A DNA stretch of 64,000 bases from Syntrophomonadaceae bacterium (GTDB taxonomy: Bacteria; Bacillota; Dethiobacteria; DTU022): contig PWYU01000122.1 of the NCBI GenBank assembly GCA_003567725.1, positions 44,201 through 108,200 on the forward strand, in the 5' to 3' direction. Position 1 is the stretch's first letter, and every line of letters begins with the position of its first letter. The notes under the pieces are model-generated. The model did no database searches. It had not been told where the DNA came from and saw only the letters and a program-made list of their open reading frames with translations. Made by a program: the position numbers and the translations under genes. Shown here piece by piece: positions 16,151-43,132 of this stretch.

Positions 16151-16221
16151 GATCTTAAAAACTTATTAGTTCTTTGAAAGCTGTTTTAGCTTGCTTGCAG
16201 AAAACTGTTTTGGAGGTGCAC

Positions 16222-17325
16222 GTGGTGCTTGATTTATTAACCGCTTTTTGGACTTTTATTGTAAACCAGGATAACCACTGGTGGCAGATTTTGATAGCCG
16301 CCTTGATTATTATATTTACTTTTTTTGTGCGAGGTATTTTGACCCGTATTGTATTAAATATTATTATAAGACTAACCAAAAAAACAAGAACCGAACTTGA
16401 TCGTGTAATAATGCTGGCTTTTGAAGGACAGCTAAAAGTCTTGATCTTTATTATCGGTTTATTCCTGGCCTTTAACTACCTTCCTCTTTCTCCGGGCGTT
16501 ATGATCGTTTTAACCAGCCTGTTCCGCTCGGCGATCATCGTTTTAATTGCCTGGGGTTTATTTAATTTGGCGGGAAATGAGGCCTATAACCGTGTTAGTT
16601 ACTTAATGAAATTAGAGCAGGGCCTGGCTATTTTTGTTTCCAAAGGTCTGCGGGCGATCATTATTGCCCTGGCTTTTGTTATTGTTATCCAGGAATGGGG
16701 TTATGATGTGAGCGGCTTGATTGCCGGCCTTGGTATCGGTGGACTGGCCCTTTCTTTAGCGGCCAAAGATGCACTGGCCAATATCTTTGGCGGAGTAATG
16801 ATTATTCTTGACAAACCTTTTGCTGTGGGAGACTGGATCCTCACTCCCAGCGTTGAAGGGACCGTGGAAGAAATGAGCCTGCGCAGTACCAGGGTGCGTA
16901 CATTTGCCAATTCTTTAGTTACTGTCCCCAATGCGGTGCTGGCCAACGAAGCGATCACCAACTGGACAAGGATGCAAAAACGGCGGATTACTTTCCACCT
17001 GGGAGTAACTTATACAACTCCCCGGCATAAACTGCAAAACTGTGTTAACAAAATCAAGGATTTGCTAAAAAATCACCCCGACGTACACCCTGATCTGATC
17101 ATGGTGCACTTCGACCAGTTTGCCGGTAGCAGCCTGGATATTTTCATTTATTTTTTCACCAGGACCAAGGTTTGGACTGAATTCCTGGCTGTCAAGGAAG
17201 ATATTAATTTTAAGATTATGGAGATCCTTGAAAAAGAAGGAGTCTCTGTTGCCTTTCCAAGCCGCAGTATCTATTTTGAAAATAAACTGCAATCTGAAAG
17301 CAGCCTAAAAGATCCCAAAGTTTAG
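16222..17325 (+). CDS. Mechanosensitive ion channel, MscS family
   Basis: Multi-TM N-terminus followed by the MscS beta-domain. The track ORF begins at 16174 inside the repeat copy, but a GTG at 16222/16225 with SD GGAGGTG 5-8 nt upstream is the more likely start. Confidence 0.83.
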   Translation: MVLDLLTAFWTFIVNQDNHWWQILIAALIIIFTFFVRGILTRIVLNIIIRLTKKTRTELDRVIMLAFEGQLKVLIFIIGLFLAFNYLPLSPGVMIVLTSLFRSAIIVLIAWGLFNLAGNEAYNRVSYLMKLEQGLAIFVSKGLRAIIIALAFVIVIQEWGYDVSGLIAGLGIGGLALSLAAKDALANIFGGVMIILDKPFAVGDWILTPSVEGTVEEMSLRSTRVRTFANSLVTVPNAVLANEAITNWTRMQKRRITFHLGVTYTTPRHKLQNCVNKIKDLLKNHPDVHPDLIMVHFDQFAGSSLDIFIYFFTRTKVWTEFLAVKEDINFKIMEILEKEGVSVAFPSRSIYFENKLQSESSLKDPKV

Positions 17326-18664: not shown

Positions 18665-20548
18665 GTGATAAAAGAACTTGAGGCAGCGCGAAAACAATAT
18701 CCCGATAAATTTGCTGATATGGATGATATTTTTTGCAAGGTCAGTCCGGGGGATCGTATTTATATTGCAACCGCCTGCGGCGAACCGCAGTACCTGGTGC
18801 ATAATTTCCTTGAATACGTGGAAGCAAATCCCAAGGCTTTTTTTGATACGGAAATCCTTCACGTCTGGACTTTGGGGGTTTCCCCTTATACTGATGAAAG
18901 GTTAAAAAATACTTTCCGGTCCAATTCTTTTTTTATCAGTCACAATATTCGCCAGGCAGTTAATGAAGGTCTGGCTGATTACACGCCCCTATTTTTAGCC
19001 GATATTCCTGCCTTGTTTCGCCGTCGCCAGGTAAAGGTCGATGTGGCTTTGGTTCAGGTCTCTGTGCCGGATGAACATGGTTATTGCAGCCTAGGGGTTA
19101 GCCTTGACATAACGAGAGCGGCAGTGGAAAACGCTGATCTGGTTATCGCCCAGGTTAATTCGCATATGCCCCGGGTGCACGGGGACACATTTATCCATCT
19201 TTCTAACTTTGATTATATTGTTCCGCATGATGAACCGCTCTTGGAATATAACCCCCCGCCGCCGGATAAAGAAATTGTTGAAGCTATCGGCAATTACGCC
19301 GCTCAAATTGTAGAAGATGGCGATACAATACAGGTTGGTTACGGATCCCTGCCTGACGCTATTTTATCTTGCTTTGGCGATAAACGCCATCTCGGTGTCC
19401 ATACCGAACTATTAAAAAATGGCCTGATAGATCTTGTCAAAAAGGGCGTAATCGATAATAGCATGAAAAGTAGCGATCGCGGCAAAGTGGTGGCCTCTTT
19501 CTGCATGGGAACTAAAGAAACCTATGCCTTTATTCATGATAACCCGCTTATTAAATTTAAAGAGATTGATTATACTAACAACCCTATGGTCATCGGCGGA
19601 CATGAGCATATGACGGCTATTAATACCGGTCTGGAAATTGATTTGAGCGGACAGGCCACGACTGAATCGATCGGCGATACGTTCTATAGCGGGATAGGTG
19701 GTTTGGCCAGTTTTATGCGCGGTTCTGCCATGGCGCCATATGGTAAAAATATTTTGGTCCTGCAGTCTACCTCCCGTGACGGAAAGTATTCAAGGATTGT
19801 GCCTGCATTGCAAGAGGGTGCAGGAGTAACCCTGACGCGAGGAGACCTATATTATGTAGTAACAGAGTATGGAATTGCCTTTTTGCATGGCAAAAATATC
19901 AGAGAAAGAGCGATGGCTTTAATTGCTATTGCCCATCCGAAATTTCGGCCCTGGTTGATAGAAGAAGCGAAGAAGAGGAAACTGATCTATAAAGACCAGG
20001 CCTTCATGCCGGGTGAAAAGGGTGAATATCCGGCTCATTTAGAGGCTTACCGGACTACCAAGCGTAATGTCCGGATATTCATGCGTCCGGTAAAAATCAG
20101 CGATGAAACTCTTATTAAGGATTTCTTTTACTCATTATCCGATAAAAGTATTTACCAGCGTTTTCTAACCGTCAGACGTCAGCTATCCCGTGAAGAGCTG
20201 CAAAAGCGGTTTGTTGTAATCGATTATACCCGTGAAATGGTTATCCTGGCTGTGAAAAGATATCTAGGCCAGGAAGTGATTACCGGTATCACCCAGTACT
20301 GCATGGGTGAAAATGACCTTTCAGCCGAGATTTCCATCGTGGTCCGTGACGATTTTCAAAGCAAAGGCATTGGATTTGAACTGCTTTCCTACTTGGTCAG
20401 GGTGGCAAAAAACCAGGGTTTGCATACCTTTACTGCCGATATCCTGCCCGATAATATTGCTGTTTTCAAGCTAATTGAAAAGCAAGGCCTGGAATTTGAC
20501 CGTAAATGGGATGGCGGCTTGATCCATATAAAGATTTATTTGAAATAA
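18665..20548 (+). CDS. Bifunctional acetyl-CoA hydrolase/transferase-family (4-hydroxybutyrate CoA-transferase-like) / GNAT acyltransferase fusion
   Basis: 627 aa. The first ~430 aa resemble CoA-transferase family I. The C-terminal ~190 aa form a GNAT fold (…ISIVVRDDFQSKGIGFELL…). GTG start with SD AAGGATGGTGA. Confidence 0.8.
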   Translation: MIKELEAARKQYPDKFADMDDIFCKVSPGDRIYIATACGEPQYLVHNFLEYVEANPKAFFDTEILHVWTLGVSPYTDERLKNTFRSNSFFISHNIRQAVNEGLADYTPLFLADIPALFRRRQVKVDVALVQVSVPDEHGYCSLGVSLDITRAAVENADLVIAQVNSHMPRVHGDTFIHLSNFDYIVPHDEPLLEYNPPPPDKEIVEAIGNYAAQIVEDGDTIQVGYGSLPDAILSCFGDKRHLGVHTELLKNGLIDLVKKGVIDNSMKSSDRGKVVASFCMGTKETYAFIHDNPLIKFKEIDYTNNPMVIGGHEHMTAINTGLEIDLSGQATTESIGDTFYSGIGGLASFMRGSAMAPYGKNILVLQSTSRDGKYSRIVPALQEGAGVTLTRGDLYYVVTEYGIAFLHGKNIRERAMALIAIAHPKFRPWLIEEAKKRKLIYKDQAFMPGEKGEYPAHLEAYRTTKRNVRIFMRPVKISDETLIKDFFYSLSDKSIYQRFLTVRRQLSREELQKRFVVIDYTREMVILAVKRYLGQEVITGITQYCMGENDLSAEISIVVRDDFQSKGIGFELLSYLVRVAKNQGLHTFTADILPDNIAVFKLIEKQGLEFDRKWDGGLIHIKIYLK

Positions 20549-20549
20549 G

Positions 20550-20598
20550 GGCTTAAGGCCGAAGGGAAGATGGTGGAACGGTCCCCTGTGGCTTACGG
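20550..20598 (+). repeat. Mosaic intergenic repeat, copy 5 (SD/ATG module + C module)
   Basis: gcttaaggccgaagggaagatggtggaacggtcccctgtggcttacgg. It sits between the CoA-transferase/GNAT gene and the FemAB-like gene and supplies an in-frame alternative start at 20570. Confidence 0.75.
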
Positions 20599-20608
20599 AG
20601 AATTTACT

Positions 20609-21592
20609 ATGGCTTTTGAACTTAAAGCAGAAACTATTTCTACTTTACAACAATATTATAAAAAAGAGGAGCTCGATCTGAACTGGCCCCATGTTTTTGT
20701 TCTGCCTGTCTGGCTGCAATCCTGGTGGGAAGCCTTTGGGCAGGAATATCGCTTATGGCTGCGCTCTATCTGGCAAGAGGGAGCCTTAATTGGCCTTGCT
20801 CCCTTGATGGTTAAAGGAGGGGAAGCACGCCTCATTGGCAGCGCCGATGTTTGTGATTACCTCGATTTCATCACCATTCCCGGCAGGGAAAAAGCTTTTT
20901 TCCAGGCTCTTGTACCAGCTTTGCAAAAAGCAGGTTTCAAAAACTTAATTTTAGAAGCTCAGCGCCCTGAAGCGGTTTTTTTTAAGGCTCTGGCAGAGAT
21001 TGAACATCACTCTTCTATACCGGCTAAAATTGATTTTATCCGGGAAAATGAAGCCTTTGAAGTTGCCCTCCCTCACACCTGGGAAGATTACCTGGCCCTG
21101 TTAAGCAAAAAACAACGTCACGAAGTAAAACGTAAACTTCGCCGCCTGGACAGGGAAGCACCGCATTACGGTTACCAGGTAATAGCAGAATCAGAAGAGG
21201 TGCAGAAATTTGTTCCCACATTTTTAACCCTTTTACAGGAACACCCGGATAAGGCCGAGTTTTTAACCCCGCAAATGGAACATTATTTCAAAGGCTTGAT
21301 CGATAATATGTCCCAGGCAGGCCTGGCCCGGTTCGGCCTGTTTAAAATTGATGGATTTAATGCCGCCGCTGTGCTGTACTTTGATTATGGGGGGCGGATC
21401 TATCTTTTCAACAGCGGCTACATTACCCGGTACCGACCCCTGAGCGCTGGTCTTATTTCCAAGCTGCTATTAATAAATGAGGCCATTTCCCAGGGTCGGC
21501 AGGTATACGACTTTTTAAAGGGGCGGGAAGTATATAAAAGCCGCCTGGGGGGAACGGGTATTCCTATTTTCAAAGTTGAACTTCAATTTTAA
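20609..21592 (+). CDS. GNAT-fold FemAB/BioF2-like (PF13480-type) acyl- or aminoacyl-transferase
   Basis: ~327 aa from MAFELKA. The C-terminal signature …YDFLKGREVYKSRLGG is typical of CelD/FemAB-related GNATs. The track start at 20570 lies inside the repeat copy, so I prefer the ATG at 20609. Confidence 0.68.
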   Translation: MAFELKAETISTLQQYYKKEELDLNWPHVFVLPVWLQSWWEAFGQEYRLWLRSIWQEGALIGLAPLMVKGGEARLIGSADVCDYLDFITIPGREKAFFQALVPALQKAGFKNLILEAQRPEAVFFKALAEIEHHSSIPAKIDFIRENEAFEVALPHTWEDYLALLSKKQRHEVKRKLRRLDREAPHYGYQVIAESEEVQKFVPTFLTLLQEHPDKAEFLTPQMEHYFKGLIDNMSQAGLARFGLFKIDGFNAAAVLYFDYGGRIYLFNSGYITRYRPLSAGLISKLLLINEAISQGRQVYDFLKGREVYKSRLGGTGIPIFKVELQF

Positions 21593-21630
21593 AGGTCTTT
21601 ACCCTAAATAAATGAGGTGGCTGTCAGAAC

Positions 21631-22827
21631 ATGCGCCTGGCGATTTTAAGTATTCACAGCTCTCCAATGGGCCGGGCCGGCTCCAAAGATACCGGTGGCA
21701 TGAGTACATACCTGCGCAGTCTGTCATCAGCCCTGGGCAGAAAGGGGCACCAGGTTGATCTTTACACCCGCAGGCCTAACTCCGGAAGAGAAAGGGTAGA
21801 AAACTTAGAAGCGAATGTGCGCCTTATTTATCCAGGCGACGGACTTGCTGAACTGGATAAAAACCACTTATTCTCCCATTGCCCTGCTGTGGCCGATAGC
21901 ATCGATCGCTTTAGCCGCCTTGAAAAAATCAATTATGATTTTATTTATAGCCATTACTGGTTATCTGGAATTTCCGGCCGCCTTCTTAAAAAGCGCTGGA
22001 ATAAACCTCACCTGATCATGTTTCACACTCTGGCCCGGGCTAAGAATGAATTATGTCCCGGTGAAAAAGAACCTCAGCTGCGTTTGGAAACCGAGGCGGA
22101 ATTGGCCCGGGATTGTGACCTGGTAGTAACTGCAGCTGAATCTGAAAAGAGACGGATCCTTAATTATTATAATCTTTCTATAAAAAAAACTGCGCTTATT
22201 CCCTGTGGTATAGAGCGCTCCGTATTTCACCCAATTAATGAAAAATGCCGCCTGGATTCAAAACTGCATAAGGGCGCGCAGGCTTCCGGAAAAACTATTT
22301 TAGCTGTAGGGCGAATTGAACCTGTAAAAGGCTTTGAACTTTTAATTGAAGCGGTTTCTTTACTACCTTCTGAAGATGATTTTAAGGTTGTGATCATCGG
22401 TGGAGAAGGAAGCGGCAGGGCCCCCTTAGCTGCCCTAAAAGACAAGGTTTTTGATCTTGGTTTAAGTGACCGGGTATTTTTCACCGGAGTAGTTGAGCAC
22501 AGCTGTCTGCCTTTTTATTATAACGCCGCCGACATCACCGTAATCCCCTCCTATTATGAAAGCTTTGGACTGGTGGCCCTGGAATCTATTGCCTGCGGCA
22601 CACCGGTGATCGCATCCCCGGTCGGAGGAGTACCGGAACTGGTTGGCCAAAACAACGCTTTCGGTTGCCTGGTAAAGGGACGTGATCCGGTTAGCTGGGC
22701 TGCTGCTATTCGCAAACTGTACACTAAAAGCAAGCCAATTCCGCACACCGCTCTTGAAACCGGCCTTACCCCGTACAGCTGGCCTGACGCAGCCGAAAAG
22801 CTGGAACTGGCTTTAAGCTCCCTTTAA
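21631..22827 (+). CDS. GT4 family glycosyltransferase, MshA-like (D-inositol-3-phosphate glycosyltransferase-type N-terminus)
   Basis: 398 aa. The N-terminus LSIHSSPMGRAGSKDTGGMSTY has the MshA-type HSSP/GGM signature that binds inositol phosphate. HSHYWLSG and a C-terminal E-x7-E-like region are also present. SD GAGGTGG. Confidence 0.78.
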   Translation: MRLAILSIHSSPMGRAGSKDTGGMSTYLRSLSSALGRKGHQVDLYTRRPNSGRERVENLEANVRLIYPGDGLAELDKNHLFSHCPAVADSIDRFSRLEKINYDFIYSHYWLSGISGRLLKKRWNKPHLIMFHTLARAKNELCPGEKEPQLRLETEAELARDCDLVVTAAESEKRRILNYYNLSIKKTALIPCGIERSVFHPINEKCRLDSKLHKGAQASGKTILAVGRIEPVKGFELLIEAVSLLPSEDDFKVVIIGGEGSGRAPLAALKDKVFDLGLSDRVFFTGVVEHSCLPFYYNAADITVIPSYYESFGLVALESIACGTPVIASPVGGVPELVGQNNAFGCLVKGRDPVSWAAAIRKLYTKSKPIPHTALETGLTPYSWPDAAEKLELALSSL

Positions 22828-22897
22828 GACATGAAAAATAGATTATGTTATAATGAGAACTGATTATTAAATCATTACAGGTTAGGATGAATTAAAA

Positions 22898-23704
22898 ATG
22901 GATTTGCAAATAATTCAAGACGCCTTGATCAGGTTCGGAACCCAAATTTTACTGGCTTTAATTGTTCTAATAATCGGTCTAAAGATCATCAATTTAATAG
23001 TTAGAGCAATATCCAAACGAATGGTCAAAGCGCACATGGATCCCTCGCCGCAGCCTTTTATAGCTTCACTGCTGCGGGTAACCCTGCAGATCCTCCTATT
23101 TATTTCTGTAGCTTCTATGATCGGCGTAGAAATGACTTCATTCATTGTCGTCATCGGAGCGATGGCTTTTGCCGTAGGCCTGGCCCTGCAGGGGAGCTTG
23201 GCCAACTTTGCGGGCGGAGTTTTAATTTTACTGCTCAAACCTTTTAAAGTGGGAGATTATATCCAGTCTGCCGGCCATGCCGGAACAATCAAAGAGATTC
23301 AGATCTTTTATACCCTGCTTGACACCCCTGATAACACCCGGGTGATAGTGCCCAATGCCTTATTATCAAACAGCAGTGCTATCAATTACAGCAAAAACCC
23401 GGTGCGCAGGCTTGATCTTACTTTCGGGGTCGGTTATGAGGCCAGTATTGACCAGGTCAGGGGTATTCTGCTGGATCTGGCTGACCGGCATGAGTTGATT
23501 TTTGATGATCCGCCACCCCAGGTTTTATTGGGAGAGCACGGAGATAACGCTGTTTTATTTTACCTGAGGATGTGGTGTAATGCTGGAGATTACTGGCCCC
23601 TTTACTTCGAATTTATGGAAACAGTTAAAAAAGCATTTGATGAAGCTGGCATCAATATCCCCTATCCACAGAAGGATGTTCATCTTATAAAAAACGAGGG
23701 GTAA
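22898..23704 (+). CDS. mscS: Small-conductance mechanosensitive channel, MscS family
   Basis: 268 aa with three TM helices then the MscS beta-domain (…GDYIQSAGHAGTIKEIQIFYT…). SD AGGATGA. Confidence 0.85.
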   Translation: MDLQIIQDALIRFGTQILLALIVLIIGLKIINLIVRAISKRMVKAHMDPSPQPFIASLLRVTLQILLFISVASMIGVEMTSFIVVIGAMAFAVGLALQGSLANFAGGVLILLLKPFKVGDYIQSAGHAGTIKEIQIFYTLLDTPDNTRVIVPNALLSNSSAINYSKNPVRRLDLTFGVGYEASIDQVRGILLDLADRHELIFDDPPPQVLLGEHGDNAVLFYLRMWCNAGDYWPLYFEFMETVKKAFDEAGINIPYPQKDVHLIKNEG

Positions 23705-23978
23705 ATAAGCTGCCTTGAAAGATTGCTACTGTAATTTTGCTACCTGGTGGCTGGATTTAAAAGACCTAACCTGGACGAGCCAGTTCTATAATAGTTGGTT
23801 TTAAAAATGAGTCCTTATACCCAGTGTATATTGGTGTTTTGGGAATGCTAAAAAAATGGTCTTACCAAATTTGTGCAGAAATTTAGTGTTAAGGGACTAA
23901 AGCAAATTTTGAAAAAATGACAGTAAGAACAGCTACTAAGCAATTTTATACAAGCACCCATAAAAGGCGGTTACAGAT

Positions 23979-24695
23979 ATGGAACAAAACAAAGCTATAG
24001 AAGCGGTAAAAGCAGATGTAATGGTGATTAGCCCCCCCCCCGACGATTCAGAGTTTGGAGTGGCCGGATCGGTGGCCCGCTGGGTCAACGAAGGCAAGGT
24101 AGTGGTCTATGTAATATGTACCAATGGCGAAAAAGGGACCAGTGATCCCGAGATCAACCCTGAAGCTTTGAAAGAAACCCGGCAAAAAGAACAAAAAGCA
24201 GCAGCCGAACTGCTCGGCGTGCGAGAAGTAATCTTTCTCGGTTACGAAGATCAGGGCTTGGAAGACACTCCTGAATTTCGCAAAGATCTCGTACGCTGGA
24301 TCCGTCACTTCAAACCGGACACCCTTGTTACCGCCGATCCCTACCGCCGCTATATCTGGCACCGTGATCATCGCATTGCCGGGCAAGTAGTCATGGACGC
24401 CGCCTTTCCCTATGCCCGGGACCATCTGGCCTATCCTGACCTTCTGGAAGAAGGGTTAAAACCTCATAAGGTCAAAGAAATTCTCACCTGGGCCAGTGAA
24501 GATCCCAACTATTATTCTGATATTACAGCAACTTTTGAAATCAAACTGGCGGCCCTGCGCTGTCACGATAGCCAGGTAGGCGCACATCACTTTCCTTCCC
24601 TTGAACAGTGGTTGCGAAAAAGGGCCGAAGACGCTGCCCGGGAGCAGGATTTTCTGCTGGCTGAAGCTTTTCACCGGGCTGAATTCTTCTGGTAG
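23979..24695 (+). CDS. PIG-L/LmbE family N-acetylglucosaminyl deacetylase (MshB/BshB-like); the conserved His of the HPDDE motif reads Pro inside a 10-C homopolymer
   Basis: 238 aa with the PIG-L fold. The motif reads VISPPPDDSE where the family has (A/P)HPDD(E). The run cccccccccc at 24032-24041 encodes the PPP. Confidence 0.78.
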   Translation: MEQNKAIEAVKADVMVISPPPDDSEFGVAGSVARWVNEGKVVVYVICTNGEKGTSDPEINPEALKETRQKEQKAAAELLGVREVIFLGYEDQGLEDTPEFRKDLVRWIRHFKPDTLVTADPYRRYIWHRDHRIAGQVVMDAAFPYARDHLAYPDLLEEGLKPHKVKEILTWASEDPNYYSDITATFEIKLAALRCHDSQVGAHHFPSLEQWLRKRAEDAAREQDFLLAEAFHRAEFFW

Positions 24696-24710
24696 AGTCA
24701 GCGGTTTTTT

Positions 24711-25373
24711 CTAAGTACTGCTCCTTAACCAGCTGACATCTCCACTCAGTTCAAAATCTTTTCTGGCGCTTTTGAATGCTTTAAACAATTCTCTTTCGGT
24801 TTTTAAGATGGTTTTTTCACCGTGTCCGGGCAGGATTACTGTCTCATCGGGCAGGATCATGATTTTTTCCTCTATTGAAGCCATAATTTGCTTAAAAGCT
24901 CCAGTTGAAGCAGTTTTGCCCGGCCCGCCCGGAAAGATGGTGTCTCCGGCAAGGAGATAGTCATCAACTTTAAAACAAAGGCTGCCGGGAGTATGTCCGG
25001 GAGTGTGCAGGACTTCCAGCTCAACGCTGCCACATTTGATTTGCTCGCCACCCTTTAAAAGCTGGTCGGCTTTTACCGGCAATTTTTCAGCATCGGCATT
25101 GTGCACGGCTAAAATTGCTTTCCAGTCATTATGGAGCGTTTTTAGATCGGTAACATGATCCATGTGTCCATGAGTCATGAGGATATATTTAACCCTGGTA
25201 TTTATAAGGCGTTCTTTGATTATTTCAGCGCTGCCTGGAGCATCAATTAATATGCTTTCGTTATTCTGCAGACAAATAATCATATAGGCATTGGTTCCAA
25301 ATGGTTTTGTTTCCAAACGCAGCAATGCTTTTTGATCGTCTTTCTTTATTTCTTGAATCCTGCTGGTCATCAC
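24711..25373 (-). CDS. MBL-fold metallo-hydrolase (glyoxalase II / hydroxyacyl-thiol hydrolase-like)
   Basis: 220 aa with THGHMDHV (HxHxDH) and downstream His/Asp ligands. Confidence 0.8.
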   Translation of the reverse strand: MMTSRIQEIKKDDQKALLRLETKPFGTNAYMIICLQNNESILIDAPGSAEIIKERLINTRVKYILMTHGHMDHVTDLKTLHNDWKAILAVHNADAEKLPVKADQLLKGGEQIKCGSVELEVLHTPGHTPGSLCFKVDDYLLAGDTIFPGGPGKTASTGAFKQIMASIEEKIMILPDETVILPGHGEKTILKTERELFKAFKSARKDFELSGDVSWLRSST

Positions 25374-25707
25374 GGTATCTCTCCCTTATAATAAATTTGT
25401 TTTGTTTTCCCTATACCTTAACTCTCTATCAGATCAAGACTCTAACATTATTATAACAGCCTTAACAACGCTTTACTTAAAAGTTTCTTCAGTGTTTATG
25501 AAGAATAATGATCTTGCCCCGTCAGCTGAACCGCTTAAAAAGAAATTTCACCGGGTCAGTTAGAGCTGCTGACGATTAACTGTAAATATTATCAATTTGC
25601 CTTCGGTTTATTAAGCTTGCAGCAGTTTTATTTCAGCCTATACTATTTCTTCTATCGCGTTATATTTTGCAGGACATTCTCCTTCGAAAACAGAAGTTAC
25701 CTTTGCT

Positions 25708-26979
25708 GTGCTTTTTAAATCGAAGGAAGTGCGATCGTTGAAGCAGTTAAAACAATTAAATCAGAACGGGCTCTTTACATTATTAATTGTTTTATCTGTC
25801 CCCTATCTTGCTTTAAGCCTTAACCAGCATGGTTTTATGGCCCTGCTGCCATTTATCCGGGAAGAATTTATACTGTCCAGGACCCAGGTGGGCCTTTATG
25901 CTACTTTTTATTTTTTAAGCTCTGCCTTGCTGGCGGTTTCCACTGGCAGCATTGTTGACAGGTTAGGCCCGAGAAAAGGTATACTGCTTGGCATCGGCTT
26001 TATGGGATCGGTATTTTTTTTGTACGGCTTTGCCCCTTCTTATGAAATATTACTGGGTTTGGCTTTTCTGGCAGGGCTCGGTTGGAGTATTATCACGCCT
26101 TCTGTTAATAAAGCCGTTTTGATGAATGCACCTGCCGACAAGCGGGCGGTTTCCATGGGTATTATGCAGTCCGGTGTAGGTATTGGCGGCCTAATGGGGG
26201 CCAGTCTTCTGCCGGTAATCAGTGTAGCTTTAGGTTGGCGCCCGGCAATTCAGATGGCGGCCGGCTTTTCCATAATCGTCTGGTTCCTGGTGCTTACCTT
26301 TTACCGTGAAAAAAAAGCTGGCATTGCTCAGGAAAAACCGGCAGCAAAAAACGGTAACCCTGGTTTTGTGCAAAGTTTAATTGACCTGACAAGGAATAAA
26401 GCCCTTCTCAATATATGTATACTCGGCCTGATGTTTGGAGTTGCCTGTGGGGCTGTAATTTCGCATTTTGTGGTTTATTTATCTGAAGATTTAAGTGTTA
26501 GCCGGGCTGTAGCCGGCCTGGGATTGGGATCATTTCAGATAGGAGGTATTGTAGGCAGGCCAATATGGGGGGTTATTTCCGATCGCTTTTTTAAAGGAAA
26601 GAGGGGAAAAGCCCTGATGGTATTAGGAATAGCAATTGGTATAAAATTTATAATAAGCGGGTTGTTATCTTTTGCTCCCCCGATCAGTACATATTTTGTA
26701 GTTATATTTGCTTTCATTTTAGGTTTTTCTGCCTTTGGTTGGCCGGGGGTGCACTTTGTTTCAATCGCAGAAAATGCCGGCGAAGATCAGGTGGGGATGG
26801 CCACCGGTTTATCGCTGCTATTCTTAAGAGCCGGATTGTTGGCCGGCCCACCGATATTTGGCTATCTGGCAGATATCCAGGAAAGCTATATCTTAAGCTG
26901 GATTAGCTTTGGAGCTATCATCACCTTACTTTATGTAACAGGGTTGCTAAAATCCAGCAAAGAGGCTGCTAAGCCTTGA
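25708..26979 (+). CDS. MFS transporter
   Basis: 423 aa with ~12 TM segments. GTG start at 25708, but a TTG at 25738 has the better SD (GAAGGAAG). Confidence 0.8.
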   Translation: MLFKSKEVRSLKQLKQLNQNGLFTLLIVLSVPYLALSLNQHGFMALLPFIREEFILSRTQVGLYATFYFLSSALLAVSTGSIVDRLGPRKGILLGIGFMGSVFFLYGFAPSYEILLGLAFLAGLGWSIITPSVNKAVLMNAPADKRAVSMGIMQSGVGIGGLMGASLLPVISVALGWRPAIQMAAGFSIIVWFLVLTFYREKKAGIAQEKPAAKNGNPGFVQSLIDLTRNKALLNICILGLMFGVACGAVISHFVVYLSEDLSVSRAVAGLGLGSFQIGGIVGRPIWGVISDRFFKGKRGKALMVLGIAIGIKFIISGLLSFAPPISTYFVVIFAFILGFSAFGWPGVHFVSIAENAGEDQVGMATGLSLLFLRAGLLAGPPIFGYLADIQESYILSWISFGAIITLLYVTGLLKSSKEAAKP

Positions 26980-27125
26980 TAACAAAGACTGGCGTTTTAT
27001 GGCTAATAGAAATTTCAATGAAAGTTAAGTGATCAGGTTTCCCTAAATATAGATAATCGGGTATAATAATTTTTGGGAATAATTCATAACCGACCATCAT
27101 TATAACAGGAAGAGGGATCTAGTAA

Positions 27126-28223
27126 ATGTCAAAGATTAAAGTTGCCATTGTTGGTGCTGGTAATTGCGCCAGCTCGTTAATCCAGGGGATTCATTATTAT
27201 AAAGATTTAAAAGAAGATGAAGCCATAGGGCTTCTGCACTGGAATGTAGGTGGATACCGGCCTTATGATATTGAGATCAGCGCAGCTTTTGATATTGATA
27301 AACGCAAAGTAGGTATGGATATAAACCAGGCGATTTTCGCACCCCCGAACTGCACCGTTAAATTAGCTCCCAACTTGCCTCCGGGTGGCCCAATCGTCCA
27401 CATGGGGCGGATTTTAGATGGTTTTTCTGAACATATGCTTGATTATGAAGATCAATATACTTTTATCAAAAGCAGCGCTCCTGAGCCGGTAAAAGAAGAT
27501 GTGGTTAAGGTTTTACGAGACTCGGGCACAGAGATCATGCTAAATTATCTGCCGGCCGGATCAGAGCAAGCTGCTCGCTTTTATGCTGAATGTGCTCTTG
27601 AAGCAGAAGTTGGGTTTGTAAATAATATTCCAGTTTTTATTGCCAGTGACCCGCAGTGGGCGGCTCGCTTTGCTGAAAAAAATGTGCCTATTATCGGTGA
27701 TGATATTAAATCGCAGATGGGGGCGACTATACTACACCGTGCCCTGGCTGATTTATTCAAAAATCGTGGAGTGAAGCTTGAACGTTCATACCAGCTCAAT
27801 ACCGGCGGCAACACCGATTTTCTGAATATGACAAACCAGAACCGTCTGGCCACCAAGCGTATTTCAAAAACGGAAGCGGTTCAGTCTGCTGCGGCCAAAA
27901 GGCTGCCCGATCGAGATATCCATATTGGCCCCAGCGATTACGTATCCTGGCAAAAAGATAATAAGGTCTGCTTTTTACGCATGGAAGGGCAGATATTCGG
28001 TAATGTGCCCATTAACCTGGAAATGCGTTTAAGCGTGGAAGATTCGCCCAACTCAGCCGGTATTGCCATCGATACTGTGCGTTGTTGCAAGCTTGCTCAA
28101 GATAGAAAGCAAGGGGGAGTTCTTGAAGGGCCATCTGCATATTTTTCAAAGCATCCTCCCCGGCAGTATCCGGACTACGAAGCTTACCGGCTCACAGAAG
28201 AATTTATCTGGGGCAAGTCATAA
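27126..28223 (+). CDS. ino1: myo-Inositol-1-phosphate synthase (bacterial/archaeal short form)
   Basis: 365 aa. The NAD-binding site KVAIVGAGNCASSLIQGI is present, and SYQLNTGGNTDF is characteristic of MIPS. Confidence 0.88.
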   Translation: MSKIKVAIVGAGNCASSLIQGIHYYKDLKEDEAIGLLHWNVGGYRPYDIEISAAFDIDKRKVGMDINQAIFAPPNCTVKLAPNLPPGGPIVHMGRILDGFSEHMLDYEDQYTFIKSSAPEPVKEDVVKVLRDSGTEIMLNYLPAGSEQAARFYAECALEAEVGFVNNIPVFIASDPQWAARFAEKNVPIIGDDIKSQMGATILHRALADLFKNRGVKLERSYQLNTGGNTDFLNMTNQNRLATKRISKTEAVQSAAAKRLPDRDIHIGPSDYVSWQKDNKVCFLRMEGQIFGNVPINLEMRLSVEDSPNSAGIAIDTVRCCKLAQDRKQGGVLEGPSAYFSKHPPRQYPDYEAYRLTEEFIWGKS

Positions 28224-33056: not shown

Positions 33057-33923
33057 TCATTCGGCTCCGCAAAAAAGACAGGGTCCGGTGGGCCGGTGGT
33101 AGCTGTGATTGGTCCAGATCCCACAATCAAAACGGTAGCCCCGGCTGCCCAGCTCTACCGGGCACTGTTCATACATCAGGTGATAACCCTCATATGTCTG
33201 GCAGCCATCACTGGTGCGGTTGCATTCTGTGCACACAAATTTTGGGGAATATGAGCCCCTGCCGTTATTTAAAAAGCCCAGGAATTTAACTTCACCATCA
33301 CAAACAAAACAGGCCGAACCATCAAGAGAAGCAAAATCAATATCATGGTAATGGACGTCACTTTCAATTACAGAGTTATCAAAAAAACCGGCCAGATCTT
33401 CAGGATGAAGGGTTAGGCTGGGCAGGTCTACCGGCAGTATGCTGGAGATAGCCTCAATCATTAACTCCGTATTACTGATAATATGAGGGGCAAAAGTGGA
33501 TTGGTCCACATAATCAAGGACCCCTCCAAAAATGGGAAAGGCAACTAAAAGGATTAAAAGGACACCGATTACGCCCACTCCGATTAGAAAGCCGGCCCCG
33601 CCCCCGCCTATTTTATCGAGCAGCTTAATCGGGCTAAATTCAGTTGCCACAGCTACAAGGGACCCAAGGATGTGAATCAGGATGGCGGTAATTGAAAAAA
33701 GCAAAATAAAGCTAACCGAATCAGCAATGACAGCAGGCAGATTAATAATACTCAAAATCTGATTGCTTCCGTCTACGTAATAAGAGATGGCTACACCTAA
33801 TCCGACAGCAATCCCGGCGATGGAAAAAATACTTTTCACTAATCCGGCTTTAATGCCCTGGATCAGGGATATTATCAAGAATAAAGCGATGATGATGTCA
33901 AGCCAGTGCAGTTCGTAGGGCAT
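33057..33923 (-). CDS. CvpA family membrane protein with C-terminal Cys-rich domain
   Basis: 288 aa. Four TM helices form a CvpA-like N-terminus. The C-terminal soluble part has many Cys (CFVCDG…CTECN…CLFCG). Confidence 0.7.
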   Translation of the reverse strand: MPYELHWLDIIIALFLIISLIQGIKAGLVKSIFSIAGIAVGLGVAISYYVDGSNQILSIINLPAVIADSVSFILLFSITAILIHILGSLVAVATEFSPIKLLDKIGGGGAGFLIGVGVIGVLLILLVAFPIFGGVLDYVDQSTFAPHIISNTELMIEAISSILPVDLPSLTLHPEDLAGFFDNSVIESDVHYHDIDFASLDGSACFVCDGEVKFLGFLNNGRGSYSPKFVCTECNRTSDGCQTYEGYHLMYEQCPVELGSRGYRFDCGIWTNHSYHRPTGPCLFCGAE

Positions 33924-34276: not shown

Positions 34277-35017
34277 ATGCCTGTCTTGATTGGTGTGACC
34301 ACAGCCTGGAGCATAGAAACCTGGGGTGAGGAAGCCGATAAGCCGGGGGGGATTTTTTATAACCCGGTTCACTACACAAATGTCCTGTATGAAAACGGGG
34401 CTTTGCCATTTTTAGTTATACCGCCGGTTGAAATAAATAAGGATGAAGATTTGCAAGCGATGGCGGAATTGACTTTAGACTCTGTCGATGCCCTTTTCAT
34501 GAGCGGAGGAGGCGGCAACCGGCGCTTCAAGGCCCCTGATATGCCTGGCTTGAAAGAGCAGCAGCCGGTTCGCTACCGTTTTGAAACCATGTTATTAAAA
34601 GAAGCCTGGAAAAGGCGGCTGCCGGTAATCGGAGCCTGCCGCGGGCATCAGATGATGATTGAAGCGCTTGGCGGAACAATTAAAAAGGAAACGGTAACCG
34701 GGCATCAGTTTGACGATTACACAAAAACCGCTCATCCGGTACACATCGCTGAGAGATCAAGGTTGGGCTCGTTAGTGGGAACAGAGGATTGGCCGGTTAA
34801 TAGTATGCACTGCCAGGTAGCTGAAACAGTGCCGGATTTTTTAAAAGTGGCAGCGCGAAGTCCCGAAGGATATATTGAAGTAATCGAAGCCATTGATTCA
34901 GTTTTTTGGATGGGTTTTCAATTTCATCCTGAAATAATGTCCGTCTTTGATCCCAAAGCAAGAAAAATCATCAAAGCTTTTGTCCAGGAAGCGCAAGCAT
35001 ATGCCAAAAGCAAATGA
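34277..35017 (+). CDS. Class I glutamine amidotransferase-like / gamma-glutamyl hydrolase (peptidase C26, PuuD-like)
   Basis: 246 aa with the GACRGHQ catalytic Cys motif and a His near the C-terminus. SD GGAGGTG. Confidence 0.78.
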   Translation: MPVLIGVTTAWSIETWGEEADKPGGIFYNPVHYTNVLYENGALPFLVIPPVEINKDEDLQAMAELTLDSVDALFMSGGGGNRRFKAPDMPGLKEQQPVRYRFETMLLKEAWKRRLPVIGACRGHQMMIEALGGTIKKETVTGHQFDDYTKTAHPVHIAERSRLGSLVGTEDWPVNSMHCQVAETVPDFLKVAARSPEGYIEVIEAIDSVFWMGFQFHPEIMSVFDPKARKIIKAFVQEAQAYAKSK

Positions 35018-35124: not shown

Positions 35125-35451
35125 CTAATCCTTAACAGGGACATCAATACCCAGAAGAGGCGGATACTGTTGACTGCCAAAGGTATCGGCGTCTCCGGGG
35201 CTACCGCTTGGTTCTTTTCTGTAAATGGTATACTTGATGGCATAGGCAGGATCAAATTCCACAAAATCAGAGATGCGATCCTCTGTAATACCATACAATT
35301 TGGCAATGTTTTCTTTACTGATTACGCCGCTATTTTTAACCAGTTCATAATTGGCTTTTTCCCGAAATATGATATCAAAAGTTATCTTATCGGTCCCTGC
35401 ATTTTTGCTGCGGATTGTCTTGGCTAAATCGGTTAATTTAACTGTTTTCAT
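35125..35451 (-). CDS. DUF4387 domain protein
   Basis: 108 aa. Immediately downstream of, and 4-nt overlapping, the AtuA-family gene, which is the canonical AtuA/DUF4387 pair. Confidence 0.68.
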   Translation of the reverse strand: MKTVKLTDLAKTIRSKNAGTDKITFDIIFREKANYELVKNSGVISKENIAKLYGITEDRISDFVEFDPAYAIKYTIYRKEPSGSPGDADTFGSQQYPPLLGIDVPVKD

Positions 35452-42786: not shown

Positions 42787-43132
42787 CAGAATTCCCCTCC
42801 TTAAAATTAAATCCCCCAAATTCCTCCTACCCTGCCAGAGATAAACGTTTAATCACCTCCCCCTGGAAGTTCAGCAGTTTTTAAGCATCATAAAAGCGGC
42901 CATGACAATCAACAAGCTTTGATGATTAGATTGTTGGATCAACCCGGTAAGTGATAGTAACATGTAATTACCAGATGATGCCTTAAAAAAGCTGATTAGA
43001 AATAAAACCTAATTAGCTGCATTAATTAGAATTTTAAAATGTTCTCATACCTGTATCATACCATTGTTAATAAATTATTCTTCCTTAATTGAAATATTCC
43101 TCCTTGTCTAATAAAATTTTATAAAAAAAATT

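Follow-up and report, generated by a model that had tools for sequence, protein, structure and literature searches.

The window, by which we mean the whole 64,000-nucleotide stretch of DNA that was analysed, carries on its plus strand a gene of 717 bp (23979 to 24695) whose 238-residue product is assigned to the LmbE/PIG-L family (CE14-like) of metal-dependent de-N-acetylases. The product matched PF02585 (PIG-L) with 103.2 bits against a gathering cut-off of 28.2 (E = 1.9e-29, model positions 1 to 128 of 129), which places it in the PIG-L superfamily by Pfam gathering score. Close to the 5' end of this gene, the plus strand from 24030 to 24047 reads agc ccc ccc ccc gac gat, so codons 18 to 23 specify S-P-P-P-D-D and ten consecutive C residues occupy 24032 to 24041 (ORF nucleotides 54 to 63). 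Both the family assignment and the C10 run within an S-P-P-P-D-D motif had been proposed in a first-pass annotation and are borne out here, with its range of 24029 to 24044 bracketing the exact run. No other homopolymer in the 64 kb is as long, and no other C or G run exceeds 7 bases, the second-longest C run being 6. Because only 0.016 (independent-base model) or 0.12 (first-order model) C runs of at least 10 are expected in 64 kb, it is an outlier. By computation, a tract of C9 would truncate the product at 40 amino acids and a tract of C11 at 55, and the in-frame lengths C7, C10 and C13 all lack the zinc-ligand histidine of the family. No LmbE paralogue able to compensate was found within the 64-kb window. 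Transcriptional or translational slippage at the tract was also considered and dropped, as the gene is already in frame and conspecific assemblies do not have the tract.

In the LmbE family, the conserved motif is H-X-D1-D2 together with a distal His, of which both His residues and D2 bind the metal and D1 is the general base; the metal triads are His13/Asp16/His147 in MshB, His12/Asp15/His113 in BshB and His10/Asp13/His111 in TT1542 (PMC4101496). The nearest solved structures to the window protein are the archaeal diacetylchitobiose deacetylases (Dac, CE14) 8bgn (E = 3.2e-39), 3wl4 and 3we7, aligned with E values of 3e-39 to 4e-32 over residues 13 to 220. Query residues 19 to 23 (P-H-P-D-D in the His version of the protein) pair with 39 to 43 of the 8bgn chain, and query residues 128 to 132 (H-R-D-H-R) pair with H-P-D-H-R at 148 to 152, so that the P-H-P-D-D and H-x-D-H-R motifs are shared. 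The published zinc triad of Pch-Dac, His40-Asp43-His151 (PMC9779004), maps to positions 20, 23 and 131. On the strength of this alignment and of the published triad and motif, residue 20 is the first metal ligand, equivalent to His40 of 8bgn, and the window protein has Pro there, encoded by CCC at codon 20 (24036 to 24038), a loss that rests on one possibly erroneous base. The first-pass annotation was thus right that a motif His is replaced, and the residue concerned is the first metal ligand of H-X-D-D + H, not the general base. The remainder of the site is intact. Codons 22 and 23 (24042 to 24047) encode Asp22 and Asp23, which align with Asp42 and Asp43 of the Dac structures and correspond to D1 (general base) and D2 (second metal ligand), and codon 131 (24369 to 24371) is CAT, encoding the third metal ligand, His131, which aligns with His151 of Dac. 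With a significant domain score and three of the four catalytic-site residues in place, the product is, as far as its sequence tells, a member of the LmbE-like superfamily.

Against the NCBIfam models for BshB1 (TIGR04001), BshB2 (TIGR04000), MshB (TIGR03445) and Mca (TIGR03446), the product scored 98.8, 88.7, 35.4 and 66.7 bits, and the respective cut-offs are 182.5, 195.25, 224.35 and 277.15. Since these scores are well under the cut-offs, the gene is not, by these models, an equivalog of any of the four. It shares with MshB and BshB the PIG-L domain and the HXDD + H metal motif (PMC4101496), and its neighbours, an MshA-like GT4 glycosyltransferase, Ino1 and GNAT genes, recall mycothiol synthesis; however, the window locus has a FemAB-like protein and no MshC or BshC homologue among the genes called there. 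The Dac enzymes are the best solved relatives, but the window copy differs from them in having Pro in place of His40, and its context looks biosynthetic (GT4, FemAB-like protein, Ino1) rather than devoted to chitin catabolism.

The gene lies in a conserved cassette that spans 18719 to 28223 of the window. Upstream on the plus strand are a FemAB-like Acetyltransf_6 protein (20570 to 21592; PF13480, with no NCBIfam match) and the MshA-like GT4 glycosyltransferase (21631 to 22827; Pfam GT4 domains, with 268 bits against TIGR03449 MshA, whose cut-off is 462.5). Convergent with the LmbE gene on the minus strand is a glyoxalase-II-like hydrolase of the metallo-beta-lactamase fold (24711 to 25370; PF00753, with 90 bits against TIGR03413 GSH_gloB, below its cut-off), and further downstream on the plus strand is a myo-inositol-phosphate synthase, Ino1 (27126 to 28223; PF01658, with 427 bits against TIGR03450, below 638). 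The conservation of these genes was counted in the 36 related loci that are 12 kb or longer, drawn from loci L005 to L164 and originating from Bacillota, Dehalococcoidia, Desulfobacterota and Atribacterota. The glyoxalase-II-like gene was present in 35 of the 36, the GT4 gene in 27, the FemAB-like gene in 26, Ino1 in 12 and a CoA-transferase/GNAT fusion in 7; among the loci printed, Ino1 was confined to those labelled Bacillota/Syntrophomonadaceae, and the fusion occurred in some of those so labelled. The LmbE protein itself is 65–70% identical across phyla. From its gene content, the cassette looks like an uncharacterised pathway in the style of mycothiol or bacillithiol synthesis. The GT4 enzyme is probably the upstream step that makes a GlcNAc-glycoside, and the order of reactions would be glycosylation, deacetylation, aminoacylation of the freed amine and N-acylation, in which the FemAB-like enzyme might take the place of MshC or BshC. 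A search of the literature on a cassette of GT4, LmbE, FemAB-like and glyoxalase-II-like genes returned nothing relevant.

Conservation of the first ligand was examined well beyond the species. Among the best 120 database homologues, 119 have P-H-P-D-D, and P-P-P-D-D occurs only in the window's own protein. In 160 related loci from GTDB genomes and JGI metagenomes, comprising soda-lake 'Syntrophomonadaceae', other Bacillota, Dehalococcoidia, Desulfobacterota and Atribacterota, the column of residue 20 is His in 160 of 160, and so is that of residue 131; the Asp-Asp pair is likewise unvaried (160/160). These loci come from a protein-seeded search with best matches 84–87% identical, and so inform conservation and not allele frequency. 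Both CAT and CAC are used for His20, and the flanking Pro codons vary, with all four (CCA, CCC, CCG and CCT) seen. As the His is invariant while the His and Pro codons vary freely, the alignment shows strong purifying selection on residue 20, acting on the amino acid rather than on the DNA. The first-pass annotation had considered that Pro might be a lineage-specific variant of the motif, in which case orthologues in relatives would carry it as well. None does: His is found in 119 of 119 homologues, 160 of 160 related loci and 6 of 6 conspecific assemblies, which refutes that explanation. Pro as a lineage feature or as a new LmbE motif was accordingly rejected, every other copy examined having kept His.

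The closest comparison is provided by six independent assemblies of the same species, GCA_007135065.1, ERZ27301263, ERZ27301261, GCA_003560055.1, GCA_007117995.1 and GCA_003563265.1 (L001–L004, L176 and L177), which are 99.4–99.8% identical to the window at the nucleotide level over 5–12.7 kb, with no indels. The first four are the sources of DNA for proteins P0121 and P0124 and align at 99.70–99.80% over 5.7–12.7 kb with zero gaps; GCA_007117995.1 and GCA_003563265.1 were found through a look-up of the Ino1 protein and are not the window's strain. All six have A at 24037 and read AGCCCCCACCCCGAC (C5-A-C4), so that codon 20 is CAC (His) in every conspecific assembly. In L001–L003, the 717-bp gene differs from that of the window at 24037 only, with A there and C in the window. 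The suggestion of the first-pass annotation that a single cac to ccc change had made the run was therefore verified directly, and the C10 is, in terms of sequence, fully explained by the C-rich Pro-His-Pro codons plus one substitution. Protein records gave the same picture. Clustered at 90% identity, the window protein groups with five others, all of which have His, and one of these, P0121, is identical to it except for H20. In a collection of 15 billion proteins, the Pro version appears once, on one NCBI contig, and the otherwise identical His version is on four contigs. No second assembly of the window's own strain was on record by exact look-up of three proteins, namely the Pro20 protein, the FemAB-like protein with its private H238 and an MFS protein with private E199 and N205. 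An exact-pattern scan of GTDB genomes and JGI metagenomes for ATTAGCCCC N{0,5} CCCGACGATTCAGAG, in which the middle of the tract was left variable, gave no match, and these collections apparently lack the species' copy of the LmbE gene or have it masked.

Besides the base at 24037, the conspecific sequences hold a diverged patch in this gene. In L177, 17 of the 55 nt at 23972 to 24026, which encode the N-terminal 16 residues of LmbE, differ from the window, and the sequence downstream is near-identical; the alternative N-terminus is also found in P0125 and P0002. This pattern looks like a recombination mosaic whose boundary falls some 6 nt before the C run.

How far the window can be trusted at a single base was assessed from its private variation. 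Fifteen conspecific contig pieces cover 56.7 kb of the window, and private SNPs were scored in the 40.6 kb where at least two comparators overlap. In total, 42 window-private SNPs were found (about 0.10%), with a transition-to-transversion ratio of 26:16 (1.6); 19 were synonymous and at most 14 nonsynonymous. The SNP at 27315, counted among the 42, later proved to be shared with L176 and L177. No private difference in homopolymer length was seen across 46 runs of at least 7 bases when compared with the conspecific pieces. Judged by these comparisons, the window is from a genuinely distinct strain and its assembly is otherwise clean, which increases the prior probability of any private SNP being real; a priori, a private SNP at 24037 would be far likelier real than erroneous. 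This SNP is nevertheless peculiar among the 42, being the only one by which two runs join into a long homopolymer. An assembly-wide pattern of homopolymer-filling errors was not found among the 42 private SNPs, which give no signature either way. The private nonsynonymous changes checked in neighbouring cluster genes (S210, H238 and M64) fall in variable columns, and H20P alone hits an invariant site. No stops or frameshifts that would mark decay were seen in the LmbE gene or the surrounding cluster.

Several other places in the window were recorded during this comparison. The only other site with a single base between C or G runs of four or more is CCCCGCCCCC at 33596 to 33605, which is not filled in and over which no conspecific contig extends. 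At 34327 to 34352, inside the ORF 34277 to 35017, a diverged patch lies by a G7 run (34345 to 34351) and has four window-private SNPs; compared with L168 and L169, it also has a 1-nt insertion and a 1-nt deletion that compensate each other, and the G7 plus A of the window corresponds to G8 in the relatives. Three private SNPs fall within 5 intergenic nucleotides at 35150 to 35154, and an AAT insertion of 3 nt is present in L170 at 35060. An intergenic A8 at 43123 to 43130 is A7 in L172 and A8 in L167, the sole homopolymer-length difference in the 56.7 kb compared. Near the start of the ORF 16174 to 17325, an adjacent double substitution is present at 16235 to 16236 (AT in relatives, TA in the window).

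Two functional explanations of the tract can be set aside with some confidence. Phase-variable contingency loci built on poly-G/C tracts are known in Neisseria, Haemophilus and Campylobacter, and the first-pass annotation had raised the possibility that slippage to C9 or C11 might likewise switch the deacetylase and its pathway. The window C10 resembles those tracts in lying near the 5' end of an ORF, in being long enough to slip and in yielding truncated products of 40 and 55 amino acids after the loss or gain of one base. However, it is not kept in conspecifics, all six of which have the interrupted C5-A-C4 form with no length variant among them, and no long C run occurs at the site in about 160 related loci. 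Furthermore, since every in-frame length lacks the zinc ligand, the 'ON' state would be without it and there is no active state to toggle. With no other G/C run above 7 in its 64 kb, the window gives no sign of a set of contingency loci, and the gene encodes a cytoplasmic enzyme of biosynthetic type instead of a surface or restriction-modification protein. The phase-variation claim is thus unsupported and, on this comparison, an evolved switch is effectively excluded; the tract, if real, would be merely slippage-prone, and we regard a functional contingency role as highly improbable. We give still less credence to Pro20 as a genuine altered-function variant of the LmbE fold that has an altered metal site or serves in non-catalytic binding and is kept by selection. 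The intact Asp22, Asp23 and His131, that is, the other ligands and the general base, would be in keeping with it. Against it, Pro stands at position 20 in no other sequence examined, the closest allele differs at one base, leaving no time for compensatory change and no sign of it, and His2-Asp ligation is used by all LmbE-like enzymes characterised up to a 2014 review (PMC4101496).

The choice is therefore mainly between a real private mutation and an error. If the A to C change is real, it would be a recent, strain-private missense mutation that removes the first zinc ligand and leaves the deacetylase inactivated or crippled. In natural or enrichment populations, accessory pathways do acquire loss-of-function alleles. 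Transient-misalignment (dislocation) mutagenesis in the C-rich stretch could plausibly have made the change, and the C10 would then be an incidental slippage-prone tract that probably hastens pseudogenisation. The distinctness of the strain argues for this explanation, as a private SNP density of about 0.1%, a ratio of transitions to transversions of 1.6 and a synonymous excess indicate that most private differences are real, and no private homopolymer indels point to sloppy assembly. H20P would be expected to be a loss of function, because the activity of the equivalent-ligand mutant of rat PIG-L, H49A, is significantly altered (PMC4101496). On the other side, the change is present in one assembly only, with no independent assembly of the same strain on record, and it hits a residue that is invariant in about 280 sequences. 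Relaxed selection is not indicated either, because the gene otherwise matches the L001–L003 alleles base for base and its neighbours in the cluster are intact. Moreover, the altered base falls precisely in a motif known for sequencing errors. We consider a real loss-of-function mutation a tenable but doubtful explanation. The more specific version, in which a real and newly born C10 arose by one dislocation-type A to C change that both lost the zinc ligand and created a hypermutable homopolymer, seems to us very improbable.

We favour, with a rough probability of 0.55, the reading that the C10 is a single base-call or consensus error in one assembly and not a biological feature of the organism. 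The true sequence would then encode an intact, ordinary zinc deacetylase, in which the A between C5 and C4 was miscalled as C; on the minus strand, GGGGT would have been called GGGGG, turning CAC (His20) into CCC (Pro). Meacham et al. (2011; PMC3295828) describe GGT T>G as by far the most frequent systematic error of Illumina sequencing, one that is strand-specific and recurs between runs. On the minus strand, the conspecifics have GTCGGGGTGGGGGCT and the window has G10, a T>G change after G's that matches this error type. Such errors, on the other hand, usually affect one read direction, and for this reason they seldom dominate the consensus at good coverage. The 121-kb contig suggests decent coverage, which counts against an artefact, as would the clean assembly, the private SNPs with the signature of real variation and the unfilled site at 33596. 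In a rough weighing, the private A>C rate was taken as about 1e-4 per A site, lowered by selection and possibly raised by dislocation mutagenesis, and the context-specific probability of a consensus error as about 1e-4 to 1e-2, depending on coverage. These rates yield a modest preference for the artefact, and the sequence context likewise favours an error, not decisively. What is observed at 24037 is a difference of one base, private to one assembly, that strikes an invariant ligand within an error motif in a gene without decay; from this combination we infer a wrong base and not a mutation.

The consequences differ with the reading. An erroneous base would mean that the H20P in the public protein record is false and that the record is unfit as evidence for a variant LmbE motif. 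A more general lesson is that a base sandwiched in a G/C run (GGGGT/ACCCC) is a reason to distrust a single assembly. If the change is real, it would represent a private knock-out of an enzyme in an accessory pathway, and the tract has little biological weight either way. Should the tract be real and newly born, it would record pathway loss at its first step, or the birth of a contingency locus, in a natural population of a soda-lake syntroph. For the biology of these organisms, the cassette around the gene, which is kept across several anaerobic phyla, is a more promising lead than the C10 tract.
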